Shown here: positions 1 to 55,051 of the stretch, in pieces
Position numbering within the stretch: position 1 is the stretch's first letter
How the letters are laid out: each line of letters begins with the position of its first letter
Assembly: GCA_977020255.1 (NCBI GenBank)
Contig: CDROCS010003087.1
Coordinates: 124,001 to 188,000, forward strand
Direction: 5' to 3'
Source of the DNA: Obrimoposthia wandeli
Taxonomy: Eukaryota
Length of the DNA stretch: 64,000 nt
Notes under the pieces: model-generated
What the model was told of the DNA's origin: nothing
Seen by the model: the letters and a program-made list of their open reading frames with translations, nothing else
Databases searched by the model: none
Translations under genes and position numbers: made by a program

Positions 1-1
1 G

Positions 2-3000
2 AATCCATCTCTCTCAATCAACGTATTTACATTCAATAGGTTCTCTAATGTGCAAACAGATGGGGATATCTTCAAAAATCCCTATGTGGATGTCATTTAC
101 AGGACCACAAACCCGGACGCTAAGCCAATCAATCTTCTCATTTTAGAAAATAATGATAATTTTCATTATGTCGGTATTCCTAAACTCAATAGGCTGCTTA
201 ATTATAGGAACAGAGGTGTATCTAATCGCATCCAGTGTACTTGGTGCCATAAGTGTCTTCATGGCTTCCGGAGACCAATAAGTTACGCCAAACACGTTCC
301 ACTCTGTAGGATGAATTTAGATCATAAAACGCTTTATTCAATGCTTACAGAGAAGCATATTGAGTTTAAGGACTTTTCAGAAACGATTTCTCCGCCTTTT
401 GCTGTTTACGCGGACTTTGAGGCTGTGCTGCCGCCACATGGAATCCACCATCAGATTCAGCTTCCAATCTCGGCCGGTATGCTCATGTCTCCCGTTGCAG
501 CCACGAGAGGGTATACACATGATTACTCGGTCTTTATCGGAGAATCTTGTGTGGTATCCTTTTTGCAGAAATTAGAGGACTTGGCGAAAGAGGTTGTACT
601 CCCATGGTACAAAAAGCATGCGATCGAGGTGATCCGACAACTCACACAGGAACAGGTATCGAGTTTCAATGCAGCAAGAATCTGTTATCTGTGTAAGAAG
701 AAACTCGCAAACAAAGTTCGAGATCACGATCACATGACTGGCGAATACCTGGGAGCAGCGCATACGAAATGCAACTTATCAAGGAGAATCAATCGATCTT
801 TTCCCGACATTTTTCACAATCTTATGGGTTATGACATGCACCATATATTGAAGCACGCACTATGCAAGTTTCCCGACTGGAATGTATCTGTTATACCTCA
901 ATCAACAGAGAAATTCCAGGCTATGATGGTGTATATTGGAGGAGTCTGTATACGTTTCATCGATTCCCTTCAATTTTTGAACAGCAGCTTAGAAAAACTT
1001 GTGGAAAACCTGGGTGTGACTCCTCTTACACATTCGCTCTTCCCGCAACATCTGGTGAGCGCCAAGGGAATCTTCCCATACGATATGGCAGTATCAGAGA
1101 CTGCTCTTCGCGCAATCACCAGCTTACCGCCAAAGTGGGATGAGAAGATCAAGCCAGCACAATATGAAATGGCGAAGATGGTCTGGACTCAGAGCGGCTG
1201 CTCATCGCTCTGGGACTATATGCTGGTCTATATGAAGATGGACGTCTACCTTCTAGCAGAGGTGTTTACAGCATTCCGGACCAAGGCCATTGCTGACGAT
1301 GGATTGGAGCCACTCAATTTCTTCTCCATCCCTGGTTTGTATTTTACTAATTTTTTCTAATTTTAGACACTAACACATATATATATATATACATGTATAA
1401 GAATAAATGTAGTACTTGTTACTATTGATTGCATAAAGATGCAGGTTTTTGCAATATAGATGCAGCACGTCTTTGTAAGATATGATGATTGTCTTTGTTA
1501 GACACACACGTGACTGTCTTTGTAGGTATAGGTGACTGTCTTTGTTAGATACTCACACACATATATACATGTATAAGAATAAATGTTACTATTGATTACA
1601 TAAAGATGCAAGTATTTGCAATATAGATGCGTGACCGTCTTTGTTAGATAGATGATTTTCACAATGATTTTCACAATGATTTTCACAATGATTTTAATAA
1701 ATGATTTTATTTCCAGGACTGACTTTCGCGAGTGCTTTCAAATCCCTGCTTCGTCCGGCTTCTTCTTCTGCTCCCGTTGTGCGAGTCGAGCTAATACAGG
1801 ATCCAGAAATGTACCGACTCTTCCGGTCTGGGATTCGCGGGAGTATGACATTTGTTAATGAACACCGCGTTGACGCCATCAATGGTACAGAACTTTTGTA
1901 CATTGATGTAAATAATTTGTACGGGTGGGCTATGTCCCAGTGTTTACCTTGTGGTAACTTTTCCTGGGTGACTGATCGGTTAGAGTTGGGGAATATTATT
2001 TCCAGCTTAAAATCAGTAGATTTATCCTGTAGTCGCTTCGCTCATTTATTGGAAATAGATTTATCCATTCCTTTCGAGCTTCATAATAAATTCGACGATC
2101 TTCCCCTTGCTCCCATTAAACAGCGTCCACCAGGGTGTAAGACTGAAAAATTGTTATTAACGCATTACCCTAAGAAACATTATGTTGTGCATTCTAGATT
2201 GCTACAAATGTACGTTAGACTTGGTGCTAAGGTAGATTTTGTATATAGAGCAATACAGTTTGAACAAACTAATGTTTTTTCAAAATATATTGAGGATAAT
2301 TCTCTCAAAAGAGCTGCGGCTACAACAGATTTCGAGCGGGATTATTATAAACTGAAGGTGAATTCTTTATTTGGAAAACTCATTGAGAATCTGATGAAAA
2401 GAATTAACCTCCGGATTTGTAATACTCCACAGAAGCTGGTTACCTATTGCAGTAAAGCCCACTTTCGTAGGACAATCGAAATCGATATGGACCTTATTGC
2501 AGTTTTACTGGATAAGGAAAATATTGTTTTGGATCGTCCTAGTTACATGGGCCAGGCGGTATTAGATTTAAGCAAACATCGTATGTATGAGCTACAATAT
2601 GAGCAGTTGGAGAAATATCGAGTTCAATTTAACTGCGACATTAGAATTATAGCGGGTGACACTGATAGCTTTTTCTTGAAGTGTAATAATGTCAATGTTC
2701 AAGAATCACTGTTACCTGCTATGATTGCTGATGGACTGTTAGATACCTCGAAATTTCCAAAAACCCATCCGCTTTATACGACGTTTAATACAGCGATAGG
2801 AAAATTTAAGGGATTATTTAGTTATAGGCAAGGGATTTTTCTACGACCAAAATCATATAGCCTAGAGACTACAGAAGGTGAATCTCAGATGAGAGCGAAA
2901 GGTATTAGTCTCCGACAGACGAGTATTAGGCACTCTAATTACTTAGCCGTATATGAGAGTGGCGTTAGCGAGCGTGTACAACAACAACGTATAAGCTCGC

Positions 3001-3131
3001 TAAATCATCAACTTTTTACTGTAAGGTTAAGTAAAATTGCCTTAAGCAGTAGTGATGATAAGCGCAAGTGGGTGGAGAAAAACCGTTCTGTCGCCTATGG
3101 TCACTTTTTATACCCGGACGAGGTTGTATAA
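2..3131 (+). CDS. polB: Polinton/Maverick protein-primed family B DNA polymerase (copy 1). 5' end lies outside the window; spliced join(2..1334,1717..3131).
   Basis: Frame is open from position 2. ExoI YADFE, ExoII FHNLMGYD, ExoIII YMKMDV, endonuclease VII-like HDHMTG..AAHTKCN, and polymerase motifs YIDVNNLYG, KLKVNSLFGK and AGDTDS are all intact. The two ORFs join in frame (IPG/LTFASAFK) across a GT-AG intron. Confidence 0.93.
1335..1716 (+). other. Phase-1 spliceosomal intron (382 nt) in polB
   Basis: Donor CCTG|GTTTGT and acceptor TTTTATTTCCAG|GA. Removal gives ATC CCT GGA CTG ACT TTC, matching the uninterrupted paralog FFSIPGLSWASALK at about 8610-8650. Confidence 0.85.
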
Positions 3132-3532
3132 ACGTTTTATATGTGTTGTACATATTTTTATTCTCCTTTGTGATTTTAAGGAATATATGTGTTTGAAATA
3201 CTTGTCTTTATTATAAAATTATTTACATAAATTTGCAGGTTTTTGCAATATAGATGCGTGACTGTCTTTGTTAGATAGATATAGGAACGTTTAAACATGA
3301 TTATCAAATTATATAATACTTTATTTTATAAGTAGATAGTTTAATTTAGTTTAATTTAATTTAGTTTAAATAAATTTATCAAATTATATAATACTTTATT
3401 TTATAAGTAGATAATTTAAATTATAAAACACACACACACACACTAGATGTATTTTGTTGAATTGGTGTTAATACAGTCTTTAGATAAAAAGATATATAGA
3501 TTTAAAGAATGTTACTAAAAATAGAATATTTT

Positions 3533-3847
3533 TGACCTCACCGTGACCTTAAGTTGTCTTCATGACCTTAAGTTGACCTTAAAGTACATTGTCCTCATCA
3601 TGACCTTAACTTGACCTTAAAGTACATTGTCCTCATGACGTCATGACCTTAACTTGACCTTAAAGTACATTGACCTTAAAGTACATTGACCTTAACTTGA
3701 CCTTAACTTGACTTGACCTCATGAGGTCATGACCTACATCTTGTCCTCACCGTGACCTTAAGTTGACCTACATTTTTTGTCCTCAACTTGACCTTAAAAA
3801 AAATTTGTCCTCAAGTTGACCTTAAAAAAATTTGTCCTCAGGGGGGG
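3533..3847. repeat. Array of TGACCT hexamers ending in a G7 run
   Basis: About 17 TGACCT plus one AGGTCA in about 300 nt, many at 11-nt spacing. Confidence 0.9.
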
Positions 3848-4138
3848 CTTTGTTCCAGAAGTCACACATCTACCTACTCTATCATTAGAAATATGGGTAA
3901 TTTGGATAAGAATATAAACAATGGCGTATCACTGGATGAATTCAAAACCAAATATCAATTTTTCACGTTTGTTTTAGCCCCTGACTTTGATATCACGCAA
4001 AACCAATTAGCAAAACAGGGTAATTTACGCCTTGACATCCAGTTTCACAAGTCATTAACAGTCCCAACAAACGTACTGATTTACGGGATTTTTGATTCTG
4101 AGTTTGAAATAACTAAAGGCCGACGTGTGATTGTATGA
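3845..4138 (+). pseudogene. C-terminal fragment of Polinton double-jelly-roll major capsid protein
   Basis: NGVSLDEF..FFTFVLAPDFD..GNLRLDIQF..NVLIYGIFDSEFEI matches the Polinton/adintovirus MCP C-terminus and the MCP pseudogenes at about 15 and 25 kb. It is truncated at the repeat array. Confidence 0.82.
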
Positions 4139-4950: not shown

Positions 4951-5003
4951 GTAAGTATTTTGATTTTATTTTAATTTTATTTAATTTTTTTTTTTTTTTT
5001 TAG
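4951..5003 (+). other. 5'-UTR intron (53 nt)
   Basis: GTAAGT donor, long T tract, and TAG acceptor immediately before ATG 5004. Confidence 0.75.
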
Positions 5004-5109
5004 ATGTCGAAAATTATTTTTGCCTTCAATGGTAAGAAAAGATGGACGATGAAGCCTGTAGTCGATGTTGATGATGATATCGACTTGGATGCGACACCTG
5101 TTAAGAAAG

Positions 5110-5149
5110 GTAATTTTCGATTATTATTTTTAATTTAATTTTCATTTAG
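5110..5149 (+). other. Phase-1 intron (40 nt) in the polB polyprotein leader
   Basis: G|GTAATT...TTCATTTAG|CA joins the 35-codon exon from ATG 5004 in frame to ORF 5152..6402. Confidence 0.78.
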
Positions 5150-6213: not shown

Positions 6214-8509
6214 AGTAACTTATGTACATTGTACAAGTATTGCACAAACGTTAATCATGGAATAGAATGTCATAGTGTAATGCTTAAATATTGTAAATTT
6301 AAAAGCGGTTTTATTTGTCCACATTGTGATGTGTTATATTGTATTGACTATCAAACATTTTATAATGATCATAAGGGTCATCTGACGTATTTTAAATCTT
6401 AAAAGTCAGCATACAAACGTAAAGTAATGATAGTACCAACAATAGACAACAATAAAATAGCAAAAACTGATAATTTTAATGAAGAGTTTGATGTGGTAGA
6501 CTCGTGGGAACCGGATAGTGTTGTAGAAATTGATACTTATCCTGAAGTTGTAGAAATTATTGAGCCTTTAACCCCTAATGAAATCTTAAATAATAATAAT
6601 ATTGATGAACTTATAGATCAGGACGAGTTTATAACAGAAAATGATATTTTCGACTCACTCCTAACTATTACGGATGATGACTTTGATAATATTGTTACAA
6701 TTAATTCAGATAATACATTAACTTTTAACAATCAAATAGGAGGTGGAATTCAATCAAACCTTGTTTTTGATGTTAGTGGATTAAACATGCTTAAACTATA
6801 CATTAACGATAATATGCTAACTGAACTTACTAGCAGTATAGATGTGTTTGGTCCCTGTAAAATACAGTTTGGTGTTGAAACCGAATTTGTCAATAACGAG
6901 GGTCAACATAAAACATGGCATGTAAGCTGTAAAGCAAATATTTTTGAACAAGATTTTATCACTACAAGAACAGTTGAGCTCAACAATAAAATTGAAATTT
7001 ATAAGGATATGAGTTCGGGATGGTCAGTATTTAAAATTCTGTTGGTATCCTTTAAATTTACTGCACTTTCAAACGTAGCAGGATCATCATTTATAAAAAC
7101 CCCGGTTGCGCTTGCTAAACATTATCTATAGTGAACGTAAATAATACTGATGATCAGTGTTTTAAATACGCTGTTCTCAGTATCCTACACTATAAAGATT
7201 TCAATCGAAACAGACAAAGAGTTGAAAACTATAAGGATTATTTAAATGAACTTATATGCGAGCCTGGTCCTATGAGGATAGACGGCATCAAGGCGTTTGA
7301 AAAATTCAATAATATTTCGATAACAGTATTATCCTATAAACCTACAAAGGTAGAGCCTCATAGTAGTCATCTAGTGTTTAAAAACCCAGATGTTAATGTT
7401 ATTTATAGAACGAGTCTTAAGCAGTGCGAAAAAGTAGTAAACTTGTTGCTGTTGGAACAGAGCAGTAATTATCACTATGCGGGGATTACAAACCTGAATA
7501 GACTTTTAAATACTCAAAAATATAATGTGCGTCTCTTTTGGTGTGATAAATGTTTTTTTTTCGTTTTCGAACCACGATTTCATATGACAAACACAGGGCA
7601 CATTGTAATATTAATACAGATTTAACAACCTTGTTTACAATGCCTAAAGAGATCAAGTGTCAGTTTTCCGACTGGTCTAAATCTATTGCGCCACCATTTG
7701 TTGTATTTGTTGACTTTGAGTCAATACTCGAGCTGCATAATACTTTCAAACACATTCATAAACCAATATATATATAGGGATGATTTTGAAAAACAACACT
7801 AATAATTCAATACAATATTTCAGTTATTACGGTCTGCAGTGTGCTAAAAACTTTGTAGATAAATTAACTGAGTTGATAAATGGTGAAGTGGCAGATTTTT
7901 GGGTAAATAGTATTAATGTTCCTATGGTTTTACTAAATAATAACATGTTGAACTTTAGAGATTGCACTAATTATATCTTTGTAAAAAATTAAACGATCGT
8001 ATGGTTAGAGATCATGATCATATCACGGGTAAATACTTGGGTGCGGCATGCAACAAATGCAATTTAAGTCGCAAGTTTGCAAAGAGACCGGTTTTACCTG
8101 TGGTGTTTCATAACCTTATGGGTTATGATATACATCATATTTTAAAATATGCCGACTTGAAAGGTAAATCCTTTTCAATTATCCCTAAATCAAGTGAAAA
8201 GTTCATGTCCCTCCGTATAGAGATGAAGAGGGGACATTGAAATTATTGATTCATACCTTTAAACGTCAAGTCTTGAATCCTTAGTTTCATACTTTGCCAG
8301 AGTTGTCCTTATACTACACAATACCTAAACCCTAATATTGCAACAAGTAAGGCGGTATTTCCATATGAATATATTAGTGGTGTTGATGGAGGCTTATGGA
8401 GAGGCAGTTACCCATAAATCTGTTTCTTCACTCCGAGTCACTGATCAACAATATAATGAAGCCCTAATGATCTGGACCGTATTAGGGTGTAATACTATTA
8501 AAGACTACA

Positions 8510-9500
8510 TGATTGAGTATATGAAACTTGACGTGTATCTGTTATGTGATGTTTTTGAGGCCTTCAGACAGAAAGTAACGGATGATGATAATCTAGAGGC
8601 GCTCAATTTCTTTAGTATCCCCGGTCTCAGTTGGGCTAGCGCATTAAAAACATTAGAGTATGATGTGGATTTATTGCATGATCCCGAAATGTATAACATG
8701 TTTGAGGCAGGGATACGGGAGGGATGACTTTCATCAATAAACATTACGTTAAAACAACAGATGAAACATTCCTCCTATACATTGACATAAATAACCTATA
8801 TGGCTGGGCCTTGAGTCAACCGTTACCACATACAGATTTTACATGGGTATATGACGGTTTGGAAGCGATAATTGAGCTTATAACTGAGAGGGATATTCAC
8901 AGTAATATGCAGGACTTAAGTCTTAAAGAACATGGATACTTGTTGGAAATTGATTTACGCATACCCATCAGTATTCATGATAAACTTGATGACTTACCGA
9001 TTGCGTGATTGAGTATATGAAACTTGACGTGTATCTGTTATGTGATGTTTTTGAGGCCTTCAGACAGAAAGTAACGGATGATGATAATCTAGAGGCGCTC
9101 AATTTCTTTAGTATCCCCGGTCTCAGTTGGGCTAGCGCATTAAAAACATTAGAGTATGATGTGGATTTATTGCATGATCCCGAAATGTATAACATGTTTG
9201 AGGTAGGATACGGGAGGGATGACTTTCATCAATAAACATTACGTTAAAACAACAGATGAAACATTCCTCCTATACATTGACATAAATAACCTATATGGCT
9301 GGGCCTTGAGTCAACCGTTACCACATACAGATTTTACATGGGTATATGACGGTTTGGAAGCGATAATTGAGCTTATAACTGAGAGGGATATTCACAGTAA
9401 TATGCAGGACTTAAGTCTTAAAGAACATGGATACTTGTTGGAAATTGCTTCGCGCATACCCACTAGTATTCATGATAAACTTGATGACTTACCGATTGCG
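8510..9500 (+). repeat. Tandem duplication (about 495 nt x2) inside polB copy 2
   Basis: 8510..9005 and 9006..9500 are near-identical with a few substitutions and a 1-nt indel. Confidence 0.95.
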
Positions 9501-11052
9501 CCTAATAGAGAAATCCCTCCCGGCTCAAAAGCTTCAAAGCTGATGATGACCCATGAGGATAAAAATAATTACTTCATACACTCACAACTACTACAATTTT
9601 ACTTGTTTCTGGGTGCAGAAATTAAACAAGTGCATATAGCAATAAAGTTTCATCAAGCTCCTATATTTAAAACATATATTGATATCAATAGCCGGAAACT
9701 GGCAGAGGGTACTACTACATTTGATAAAGAGTTTTATAAACTCAAAAATAACTCAAAATATGGTAAAACAGTGGAAAATCTTAAAACGTAAAGCAAGAAT
9801 GATCGTCAGTTTACTAAACTTGTTTCAAGCCCTTGATTTTAAGAAGCATACCCAAATAACCGACAATCTCAATCTTTTTATTTATAAAAGAAAGAAATTT
9901 GTCTGGATCGACCATCATATATTGGTCAAGCTGTGTTGGACTTATCTAAAACCCGCTGCATGTCAAATCACAGTATAGTTATTCTATCGGTAATGTAAGC
10001 AATATCATTGTGATATCAAATATGGAAGTTGCAATGGATACAGACTTTTTTTCTTAGAGTGCTATTAAGTAGATAAAAGATGTCTCTAAAAACAAATGAT
10101 TAAAGATCAGATGTTAGATACTAGTAATTACCTGCCCTGATGAGTTATTTACCATTCCCATCGAAATGTGATTGGCAAGTTTTGAAGACAGAAAGCAAGT
10201 GGGATAGTGCTTATGATGAATGGATATTTCTGAAAACCTGCTACTCATTGAAAACGATATGAGGGCTAAATCTCCTTAAAAACAAACCGAAATCAGACAT
10301 GAGCATTACATAAAGTGTTATGGCGTTGATGATGAAATTATAACTGCCGGTCAGACACGTATTTTATCTCGTAATCATCAATTATTTACAATGTATAATG
10401 ATAAAATTAGTGTTAAGGTGTTATGACGATAAAAGGTTTTGGATTGAGAAAACAAACTGTCGCATATGGACACTATAGTCTAAGATAGGTGTATATAAAA
10501 TCTGGGGGTAATCTCTGTTATTGACTAGTTCCTTCTTATTTTTAATGCGACAGTAGTGTATCATTTTAAACATAGTATGTATATATTTTTAATGCTATAG
10601 TATGTATATATTTTTATTGATGTTTATTTTTACCGCATTGTATGTATCATAAATTCATGTCTTGACTTCCTGCTACTAGCTATTCATTGATACTTCATTT
10701 GATAATTTCAACAAATTATCTATAAATATATACACACATTTCAACCAATTTCTGCTTATGCTTCAAATGACTACTTCTAAAAAGAAAAAATTGCAAGCTT
10801 CCTCTTATGATAACTCCTTGAGTCTACCTGATGGCTCAGTATACTGAAAAGTACTTTAACTTTATTTGTTGCAATGAACTTTTTGTCTCAAGGATTGAAG
10901 AACTTTATATGTATCACCTGTTTAATGGAGACTTTAAACCTAAAGTTGCAACAATCATTAAAATAGAAGAAGAAGAAAGCATGGATTGTGACAATGAATA
11001 TAACTTTTTACTAGACTCCTACTATAAACAATAACGTTTCTTAAGATAAAAA

Positions 11053-17849: not shown

Positions 17850-17900
17850 AACTCGATAATCTATAATAAATATTCTATACTTTCCTGTTATCAATGTTTT

Positions 17901-19051
17901 AATTAACAATGCTACTGTATTTATTTTCGTTCATCTTGTGAATTGATTAGTTATGTATGTATTTTATGACTATTATTTATTTAGATAAATAATTTAGAAT
18001 TCGACATAATTTTTATATTTATGTAATTAAATGAATCAATAAAATTAACTACAAAAAGAATATTTTTCGGTAAATTATAACTAAATAGACAATTTACATC
18101 TATATTATAAATTGTTTCATGTAAAATATAACGCAAATTATTGAAATTTTAACATAATGTACACTTAAATTAAATAAAAATAATCTAAATTGAATTCAGA
18201 AAATATTTGTGACTACTATTGCCACTGTAAAATATAAATATCAATTCCTTCAAAAACTGTGTAATAATGTAATAGTTTAACACAATTTATTGTATTATAT
18301 ATTTGTGAGATTAAATGAATTTTCCATATATTCTAAAAAATAGCCCAAGGTGTTTAGTAAGTTATTAGATTATTTGCAAGGTGCTTTGAATTCTTATTAG
18401 AGCTAGGAGGTATTTAATGGAAATACTTTTATGAGGATATTTGTTTATTTCTCATTTTTATATCACAAATGAGGTTTATATTAGAGAAATAAAAGTTAAA
18501 TTAAGTATTTAACCATTTATAGCTCAATCTAGCTTCGAATCAGCAATATACAGTATTATACAATAATTAACAATGCTACTGTATTTATTATCGTTCATCT
18601 TGTGAATTGATTAGTTATGTATGTATTTTTATAACTATTATTTATTTAGATAAATAATTTAGAATTCGACATAATTTCTATATTTGTGTAATTAAATGAA
18701 TCAATAAAATTAACTACAAAAAGAATATTTTTCGGTAAATTATAACTAAATAGACAATTTACATCTATATTATAAAATTGTTTCATGTAAAATATAAAGC
18801 AAATTATTGAAATTTAAACATAGCGTACATTTAAATTAAATAAAAATAATCTAAATTGAATTCAGAAAATATTTGTGACTACTATTGCCACTATAAAATA
18901 TAAATATCAATTCCTTCAAAAACTGTGTAATAATGTAATAGTTTAACACAATTTTTTGTATTATATATTTGTGAGATTAAATGCATTTACCATATATTCT
19001 AAAAAATAGCCCAAGGTGTTTAGTAAGTTATTAGATTATTTGCAAGGTGCT
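17901..19051 (+). repeat. Direct repeat of about 485 nt (17901..18385 and 18565..19051)
   Basis: Two near-identical AT-rich blocks separated by about 180 nt. Confidence 0.9.
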
Positions 19052-31050: not shown

Positions 31051-31819
31051 AATTTTATGTGTTTTGTTTCATTTTTAATTTATTTTTTAAAAAAACTTAA
31101 ATATTAAATTTTTTTACAAATTTAGTAATATTAAAATACAATAATTTTTTTTTTTAATTTAAAATTAAAAAATAAAAAAATAGTTAACTTAATCGAATGT
31201 GATTGGATTTATTAGAAATAATATAATTCTACATGTCTTCACATTTTTTTACATTTTTTTAATTTCAAAAAGATAAGTTTAAAATTTATATAGAAATGCA
31301 ATGATTAGTTATAGATTTATTAAATTATAAATTCTCATTTGATAAATAAAAATATATAATTTAATTGAATGTGATTGGATAAAAATATTTTTAATAAATA
31401 TATATATATATATAGGTACAAATTTAGAGTTTAGATTAAAAGAAAAAATTTACTAATTTATATCTAACTAATTATTTTCATTTATTAAAATGGAAAGAAG
31501 GACATAAGGCTTTTTGTGAAATATGTATTTTTGATACAATTAAATCTAATTTTGATATTGAAAATAGAATTTTTTATGTTTTAGATGAAATGAATGGCAA
31601 AAAGTATAAGACTTTAAATAAATATTTTCCAAAATTGAGATTGAATACCTAAAATATTTCACGTGATCATATATTGAAAATTCCACGAAATATTTGCTGT
31701 CCATATCGTGATCATGGTGACCATTGCGCATATAAAAAAATTTAAGTCTTTCTTATTATTACTTGACATGTAGATAAAAAATTCTTCTAATTGGAGAAAT
31801 TCATTATTTACAAAATAAT

Positions 31820-37543: not shown

Positions 37544-38621
37544 TGCATATAATCTTTCATTTTTAATATTGTTTATATTATCATAGAAGTTTACTTATTG
37601 AAATGTACAATGTTAGAGCTATTCTAGATGAAATACAAAAATTAATTAATGAATATTTGGCTATAATTTTATTTATTTGCAATTGATTTCTAAATTCTCG
37701 AATAACGTATGATCTAACCAATATTTCAATGTTATCTCTTGTTATATCATTATTTTTTTAATTCGGATAAAATTTGTTTACTCCTCATTTTTCCAGAAAA
37801 TATTTTGTCGACAAGACGATCCACTTCATTGTTTGTATGTATAGTATTATTAATTTGAAACAATAAGTTTAAACGGGTTTTTTTATAGAAAAGATAACAA
37901 GATGTAATAAGATATATTTTCTAAAATCAAATCAACAATGTCTGGATAATCAATATTTTTCAATCCCAATAACTTTACATATTTACATATAGCGGTTTAA
38001 ACTTCAAATAACTGAGAGCAGGAAAAAATTTCCGGTTCAAACATTATTCTTTCATTTTCTCTGTAATTTTATAAAGATTTATTTGTTTCCCGAGATTAGC
38101 TGAAATTGTGTTTGATTGTATTGCAGTGATTCGAATTTCAAATGGTAATTCGAACTCAAGCAAAAGTATTTTGTATCCCATAACACGACAACTTCCTAAA
38201 AGTATTCAATATGAAAATAAAATAAAATAAAAAACTAATCTGTGGGAAAAATAACAACTGTGAAATCATTAAACATTTTCACATATTGTCTCAGCTTTCA
38301 TTCATTGAATGGTAAGTACGAAACATCATTTTCAATTCTAACTTTATAATTTATATTTACGAGTTTTATTAGACTAAAATTGTATTCTGTAAATTCTTCT
38401 TTATATATGCCTGAATCTGCTCTTTTAATGCACATTTCTTGTAATTATCTTGCAAACATATTATAATTGGATGATATATTTCTTCCAATCAATTTTTGAT
38501 TTTTTTAATATGGATTTAGTCCAATCAAATGCAATACTTTAGTTATATTAACCAATGCGATTCATATCTTTGTTACAAATTAGTATAAAAGCATGCGCCA
38601 TTGAAGGACAAATCACAATAA

Positions 38622-53969: not shown

Positions 53970-54383
53970 TTCTAATTCAAACAAACTAGCATACTGGTGA
54001 AACATTGAACACAAAACAGACATGAATCACACAACAGGTTCTAATTCAAACAAACTAGCATACTGGTGAAACATCGAACACAAAACAGACATGAATCACA
54101 CAACAGGTTCTAATTCAAACAAACTAGCATACTGGTGAAACATCGAACACAAAACAGACATGAATCACACAACAGGTTCTAATTCAAACAAACTAGCATA
54201 CTGGTGAAACATCGAACACAAAACAGACATGAATCACACAACAGGTTCTAATTCAAACAAACTAGCATACTGGTGAAACATCGAACACAAAACAGACATG
54301 AATCACACAACAGGTTCTAATTCAAACAAACTAGCATACTGGTGAAACATCGAACACAAAACAGACATGAATCACACAACAGG
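53970..54383. repeat. Minisatellite, 6 x 69 nt
   Basis: Six head-to-tail copies, only one substitution seen (in the first copy). Confidence 0.95.
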
Positions 54384-55051
54384 TTATTTTACCATTACGA
54401 TAAATAATGAGTATACCCACCCTTTGAGTTTTTATCTTCCTATCGTAGCTGGACAAGCGTCTGATAGATCCATTTCTTGAATCTGGACGACTAAATAAAC
54501 CAACAGAAATAAATGACTAAAACAACATATTACTTTGATCCTACTATAATTTACCAAATATCTGTATGTCGATCCGAGCTCAATTTTTCGTAAAGAAAAG
54601 ATGAGAATATTTTGATGAAACTTATTGGAGTTCTCGGAAGGATTCCGGGGTGGTTATAAAATAATAATGTTGCAAAAAAATTAATGAAAAAATGTTGAAA
54701 AACGACAGTTCAATTATCTAAACAATTAATCTGTACAATTTCTTAAAATACTTTTGCGATTTTAAAAGATTAATATTTTTGCAATGAAAAATAAGCAAAA
54801 GTTCAATCTGGGACATGTCTCAGAAAAACAAGCCAAGAAAAAATGAAAAGAGAATAACGTGAATACGCCAGGCGCACTGAAACTCAAGCAAAAGTCAGAA
54901 TTTGGTCCGTAGCGTGGGATTTTCCTAGCTTTAATGAACTATTTTTTTAAGTCTATATATTTTTGTCCAGACCTCATTTTATCTGATTATTATTTATTTT
55001 CATCGATGTTCAGAAAATCAGAAAGTACATGTGAAGAATAATTTGGTGTGC

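Follow-up and report, generated by a model that had tools for sequence, protein, structure and literature searches.

The polymerase gene and its element

The window, the whole stretch of 64,000 nucleotides analysed here, is a nest of Polinton fragments in an AT-rich genome of 1.35 Gb. The Polinton load of this genome is very high: a 68-aa query from the polymerase gene pPolB returned 26,447 first-look candidates, and exact motif matches number at least 5,000 genome-wide.

At the start of the window lies pPolB, the last gene of a 12,017-bp Polinton (G000:C3087:115862-127878) with terminal inverted repeats of about 650-720 bp. The right repeat (3223..3878) ends in CT, and part of the intron unit described below recurs at its inner end (3218-3280). 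It is followed by a 6-bp target-site duplication (3879..3884), the element being inserted in the major capsid gene of another Polinton. A TGACCT-containing repeat array lies within the terminal repeat at 3530-3845; because array lengths differ, the left and right repeats of the window's copy align at only 79%.

Full-length relatives of the element measure 16.0-16.5 kb, and their gene content includes integrase, ATPase, protease and a TBP-like gene. The integrase (rve, 7e-13) and the packaging ATPase (Pox_A32, 4e-6) are recognized in family copy L050; the former is deleted from the window's copy and the latter is absent from it. The adenovirus-like protease matches Peptidase_C5 in L039 at 5e-4, just below the cut-off of that profile. 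Two ORFs of 410 and 359 aa have no informative Pfam match, and any names for them are our assumption from size, gene order and motifs. Both element ends were found in 9 of 28 copies, with a perfect 6-bp duplication in eight of these nine and the ninth cut by the locus end. L054 and L055 (C1517), 39 kb apart, have identical target duplications and differ little in length; they represent either a duplicated segment or redundancy in the assembly, which means that not all copies are independent.

Other genes of these elements were also seen. The Polinton-borne TBP-like gene (L031:4124-4519; window 37978-38199, reverse strand; Pfam TBP, 7.5e-13) holds a 38-nt GT-AG intron. A 175-aa ORF upstream of pPolB (L031:8242-8766; window 31440-31739) bears an IDFE motif and no informative Pfam match; it may be DEDD-exonuclease-like. 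Between ATPase and integrase lies a basic ORF on the reverse strand (L050:8223-8603) that is weakly similar to adenovirus mu/protein X (E 0.005, below cut-off).

The initial annotation described two halves of one pPolB split in the conserved FSIPGL motif, and this description is borne out. The upstream exon (1..1334 within the window) holds the exonuclease region with an inserted endonuclease-VII-like domain; placed by that annotation at position 50, its start is in fact 1,055 nt upstream of the window, after an ATG and a 42-nt GT-AG intron. The last exon (1717..3131) holds the polymerase motifs YIDVNNLYG and GDTDS. Both halves match Pfam DNA_pol_B_2 (PF03175) above the curated cut-off, over adjacent stretches of the profile (7-160 and 199-386).

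The predicted intron between them (1335..1716, forward strand, as are both exons) is 382 nt long, begins with GTTTGT, ends with TTTCCAG and interrupts the Gly codon of FSIPGL in phase 1. Its GC content is 28%, against 44% and 39% in the flanks. The two ends join the halves exactly in frame, as had been claimed: aligned separately to 120 outside homologues (34-55% identity, uninterrupted ORFs by design), the halves are separated by a single residue in 64 cases, and in 54 it is Gly. The remaining 56 alignments were uninformative, since local alignment started past a variable linker. If the segment were retained, the frame would stop at 1358-1360. The warning that ORF-based annotation would call this gene broken holds.

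Features of U2-type introns are present: a GT donor with G at +5, and a YAG acceptor after a pyrimidine-rich stretch that is free of AG from 1652 onwards. Branch-point words of the CTAAY type occur only near the 5' end; close to the acceptor there are only the weak TTAAT and ATGAT. Four sequencing runs of one sample cover coding and non-coding parts evenly and so behave as genomic DNA; the 1334/1717 joint is not among the 15 listed of 548 joints in these DNA-like runs. A self-splicing group I or group II intron was considered and rejected, with two weak and unrelated Rfam matches far below thresholds and sister introns down to 41 nt. Judged from its sequence, the segment 1335..1716 is very probably a spliced intron.

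To call the polymerase itself intact is too strong. The window's copy is not intact because integrase and ATPase are lost, a 12-nt in-frame deletion lies near 2815 (the longer form is seen in 33 of 38 copies) and one residue nearly invariant in homologues is changed, a difference from 36 of the 38 copies.

Distribution of the intron among copies and families

Forty copies of the family were chosen on last-exon sequence alone. Two have no upstream flank, and all 38 scorable ones carry a GTTTGT...CCAG segment of 216-497 nt, its lengths falling in all three frames (14/11/13). The segment is likewise present in 30 of 30 loci fetched with a segment-containing, hence biased, query, with GT-AG intact in 28. 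Across the whole genome an exact 21-mer was matched 1,160 times with A at -2 and 14 times with a different nucleotide there; all 14 have the segment, and no intron-less family copy was found among these 1,174 matches. Near-constant splice sites inside the family prove little, because its copies are 95-99% alike and 14 changes at -2 in 1,174 are about background.

Both pPolB exons are under purifying selection. For variants common to at least two copies, pN/pS (from plain site counts, uncorrected for transitions) lies at 0.19-0.21 for the upstream exon and at 0.03-0.25 for the last one (p 0.002 to 1e-6); for singleton variants the values are 0.81 and 0.51, respectively. In only 6 of 38 copies are both halves open throughout: most copies are decaying, but in the lineage that produced them both exons remained functional in the presence of the segment.

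The intron recurs at the same nucleotide in seven lineages of about 60-90% protein identity. Its position, phase and ends stay the same across them; its length (41-497 nt) and interior vary freely. In the other families it measures 41-163 nt, the sister mini-introns spanning 41-49 nt, one of them with GTAAGA. Donors across lineages read GTAAGA, GTAAGT, GTTAGA, GTTAGT, GTTCGA, GTTTGT and GTAATT. At this codon, a donor-side pattern gave 233 matches against 5 for its control, and an acceptor-side pattern 910 against 0. Among 65 loci picked by the acceptor side only (one place counted twice), nine have no findable upstream exon end; the segment starts with GT in 51 of the other 56, and G stands at +5 in 49 of these 51, with +3, +4 and +6 varying. 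Conserved GT and G+5 with other donor positions varying is the pattern expected of a spliceosomal donor. Retention would bring an in-frame stop in 21 of 21 representatives, with a possible restart ATG in six. Counted by exact patterns with slight overlap, at least about 2,000 copies bear the intron. For uninterrupted genes of this clade's own L[ST]FA type, the search pattern gave one chance-like match; the W/Y-type pattern gave 3,239 matches, in a few families.

In a midpoint-rooted maximum-likelihood tree of 55 rows, all 21 intron rows, from the seven lineages, fall on one side of a 100/100 branch, and one intron change suffices in 100% of bootstrap trees. The rows comprise 25 hand-picked genome representatives and, from outside, the 30 best homologues (197 input rows kept, 43 skipped); six are under half filled, and suspected frameshift stretches were masked. 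The sister of the intron clade is an intron-less family of the same genome, with the paralogue in the window further out; clade membership and the "intron-less outgroup" are biased here because the patterns demand GT or AG on one side and partly a Phe past the site, and because outside homologues are uninterrupted ORFs. The initial annotation had placed a gain or loss within this family; gain on the stem of the clade is most likely instead. One old gain on the stem of the whole clade of families is, on the sequences compared, a probable history. Taken as a whole, the GT-AG interruption at a fixed nucleotide would with high probability be a spliceosomal intron gained once in the ancestor of the clade and inherited since.

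Searches for the same intron in other hosts gave 0 matches for the donor pattern in viral contigs, and 7 and 50 for the acceptor pattern, with pPolB in none of these 57; a near-length protein search returned no relative above 58% and none clearly starting at the intron site. These negatives are weak because the collections searched hold little animal DNA. At one locus of the genome (L209) the intron at this site is 2,688 nt long with 39% GC, probably owing to a later insertion into the intron.

The paralogous pPolB in the window belongs to a family about 45% identical to that of the intron, outside the intron clade. Its FSIPGL motif is uninterrupted at about 8610 and 9110, and these two occurrences stem from one tandem duplication within a single broken, frameshifted copy (8510..9500, forward strand; 496 bp, 98.6%). 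The claim that this paralogue is intron-free holds for the FSIPGL site and fails at the start of the gene, where two short GT-AG introns lie on the forward strand (4951..5149): one at 4951-5003, ending just before an ATG, and one at 5110-5149, in phase 1 and in frame with the long ORF. They also occur in 4 of 7 loci listed, six of which are of the paralogue's family. In elements of the intron family, a GT-AG intron follows the pPolB ATG in 23 of 23 copies where it was found, and the TBP-like gene of the same element has one in 23 of 23 (28 examined in each case). With such introns at the pPolB start, in the TBP-like gene and in the paralogue, introns are a general trait of Polintons in this genome. 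Near-perfect tandem duplications are also frequent in Polinton copies: besides the one just described, we noted a spacing of about 660 bp at 17900-19051, a 69-bp array at 53970-54385 and a 775-bp triple in L032 (about 7260-9590).

Intron interior and alternative explanations

The intron of the window's family can be divided in three. Its donor GTTTGT and older 5' part (1335..1362) are common, by eye, to the 93-143-nt introns of the closest sister families (L217, L148, L168 and L205), and its older 3' part (1653..1716), with 12-nt tandem repeats, a pyrimidine tract and TTTCCAG, resembles the 3' ends of the same introns, again by eye. The extra 290 nt between them (1363..1652) were added later and consist of the element's own subterminal unit in two copies, both in the opposite orientation to the left end; each contains AATAAA (1402 and 1578) and the motif pair TTTGCAA...GTCTTTGT. 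From one to three units are present per intron, varying among near-identical copies. The intron matches the element's left end on the reverse strand in 24 of 28 copies, and unit cores in intron and left end are near-identical in all copies.

A 30-mer taken from the unit matches the genome at 2,754 places. Each of the 30 loci checked is Polinton: 12 left ends, 8 right ends, 7 instances of the same intron and 3 sites beside other Polinton parts. The unit is therefore not an independent MITE. Capture from the left end only is too narrow a source, the right-end unit accounting for those 8 of 30 loci. The intron of this family became longer as it took up copies of subterminal sequence from the element itself.

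In a second lineage (the L133 group) the same intron contains TTTGCAA repeats and GTCTTTGT, like the left intergenic region of its own elements. Exact GTCTTTGT matches adjoining TTTGCAA in the window's copy are all non-coding. Comparison of L191+L190 and L192+L193 with L039+L195 shows the L133 family to be 92-98% identical to the window's family over ATPase, integrase, capsid, protease and the pPolB start. In the polymerase core the identity of the two falls to 70-73%, the intron differs, and the terminal repeats do not match. The replication part of L133-family elements appears to have been swapped as a module.

We propose that the intron would have been gained once, in the ancestor of the clade, and passed on with the element. 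Nuclear transcription by Pol II would be followed by removal of the intron by the major spliceosome, so that with an intron fixed in the polymerase gene the pPolB mRNA would need host splicing; the dependence of replication on the host spliceosome, as put forward in the initial annotation, would follow in the same conditional sense. Absorption of one to three subterminal copies most likely would have occurred by template switching or ectopic conversion during strand-displacement replication, and captured units would be tolerated because the interior of the intron is free.

A disabling insertion, that is, a MITE or other transposable element mimicking splice sites in a family copied by the polymerase of intron-less families, is almost certainly the wrong account, even though the segment has a repetitive interior, and intron-less pPolB copies exist in the thousands (the 3,239 matches) and could act in trans. 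Neither terminal repeats nor a target duplication, 2-nt matches aside, are found at the segment ends; the interior unit is Polinton sequence at every locus checked and does not lie at unrelated host sites; sister families carry unrelated interiors of 41-163 nt at the same nucleotide; and purifying selection acts on both exons. The earlier preference for a spliceosomal intron over such an insertion thus holds. The gene could also have been split, with an exonuclease half running to 1360, a polymerase half starting from an ATG at 1701 and a spacer with a polyadenylation signal. That ATG is indeed in frame, AATAAA occurs at 1402, 1578 and 1696, and the segment's first 27 nt can be matched in register to the beginning of the last exon (15/25, p 0.00025). 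Yet only 6 of 21 representatives have an in-frame ATG close to the junction, and its place differs among them; gaps of 41-49 nt are too small for a terminator plus a promoter, and what is conserved is GT and G+5; the in-register match has p<0.05 in 5 of 6 rows of the family's own lineage and in 1 of 15 others. We regard a split gene as very improbable. There is a model of intron origin by tandem duplication of CCAG/GT codons; as an origin here it was set aside as unproven, the in-register match being found mostly in one lineage, with none on the 3' side, and probably due to chance.

The intron might be real and also serve as a regulatory switch: the captured units would provide sites for polyadenylation or factor binding within it and so govern how much truncated N-terminal protein is made relative to full polymerase. 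The units lie in sense orientation with their AATAAA, the unit at the left end follows the stop of the last gene, the L133 group has TTTGCAA repeats and GTCTTTGT in this intron as well, and the exact matches of the motif pair are non-coding. Against this, most lineages have plain AT-rich introns without these motifs, the number of units varies from 1 to 3 among near-identical copies, AATAAA is common in DNA of 28% GC, and most motif occurrences are duplicates of one another. We consider a switch unlikely. Equally doubtful is its extension to an active Polinton radiation dependent on host splicing, in which two lineages would have separately loaded the intron with their own cis-motifs as a polyadenylation or enhancer switch. 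Tissue-specific control, raised in the initial annotation, is without support, no evidence having been found either way. A different history, with the intron ancestral and lost in other families or gained several times at a favoured site, retains a small chance: interiors cannot be aligned between lineages, and outside homologues are biased to uninterrupted ORFs. It is countered by the single change in all bootstrap trees, by two separate intron-less lineages of the same genome outside the clade, by the lack of any intron-less L[ST]FA-type copy beyond one chance-like match, and by the core genes of published Polintons being intron-less. We read 1335..1716 as a constitutive intron, not a switch.

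Significance and relation to known systems

The Polinton intron corrects a working assumption that these elements are intron-free; spliced viral polymerases are already known elsewhere. An intron kept through long purifying selection implies nuclear transcription by host machinery throughout the Polinton cycle. Seven lineages and thousands of copies form a rare dense series in which to follow the splice sites and interior of one intron after its gain. These Polintons would need the host splicing machinery, and to intron-blind gene finders they look broken. As the field treats Polintons as intron-free, a clade of about 2,000 copies here would be scored dead or missed.

Intact vertebrate Mavericks are reported to have core genes without introns, and intact is taken to mean intron-less ORFs (PMC8097293); in nematode Polintons core genes are intron-less and only cargo genes have introns (bioRxiv 10.1101/2022.07.12.499685). 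A prokaryotic gene caller was used in one study because endogenous viruses 'do not contain introns' (PMC10120064), and another makes the same assumption (PMC9356565). Group I introns are reported in PLVs (PMC12220804). No report of an inherited spliceosomal intron in the core Polinton polymerase was found in the portions of the literature covered, where PMC10748475, PMC8502044, PMC12747079 and PMC5718144 hold nothing relevant on introns in this gene; Repbase entries and supplements may describe such introns.

The elements studied here resemble animal Polintons/Mavericks (eupolintoviruses/adintoviruses) in their terminal inverted repeats of the form AG...CT, 6-bp duplication and 16-kb full-length copies, and in their genes: pPolB, retroviral-like integrase, A32-like ATPase and adenain-like protease. 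They differ by inherited GT-AG introns in the core polymerase. Introners in dinoflagellate eupolintoviral elements, reported by Gozashti et al., are likewise spliceosomal introns inside Polinton-like elements; they are mobile, intron-generating transposable elements mostly thought to be acquired after integration (PMC12166617), whereas the intron described here is without TE ends. It also sits at one site across the clade and is inherited with the element.

Chlorovirus PBCV-1, whose polymerase is RNA-primed, is a giant lytic algal virus, in contrast to the integrated, protein-primed element of this study. Its DNA polymerase gene a185R nevertheless has an intron processed by the spliceosome and documented by junction reads; it is of spliceosomal type and lies in a viral family-B DNA polymerase, as here, with splicing demonstrated there and deduced in our case (PMC3946568).

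Adenovirus E2B offers a further comparison, different in that the intron here interrupts the conserved core, where the exonuclease region gives way to the polymerase region. In adenovirus, leader exons are spliced onto the polymerase ORF, and the polymerase has a tiny first coding exon, which the ATG-then-intron start of pPolB resembles. E2B (AdPol, pTP) is a case in which spliced mRNA encodes a protein-primed polymerase belonging to the same broad lineage, as we would expect for the Polinton pPolB (PMC9499273).
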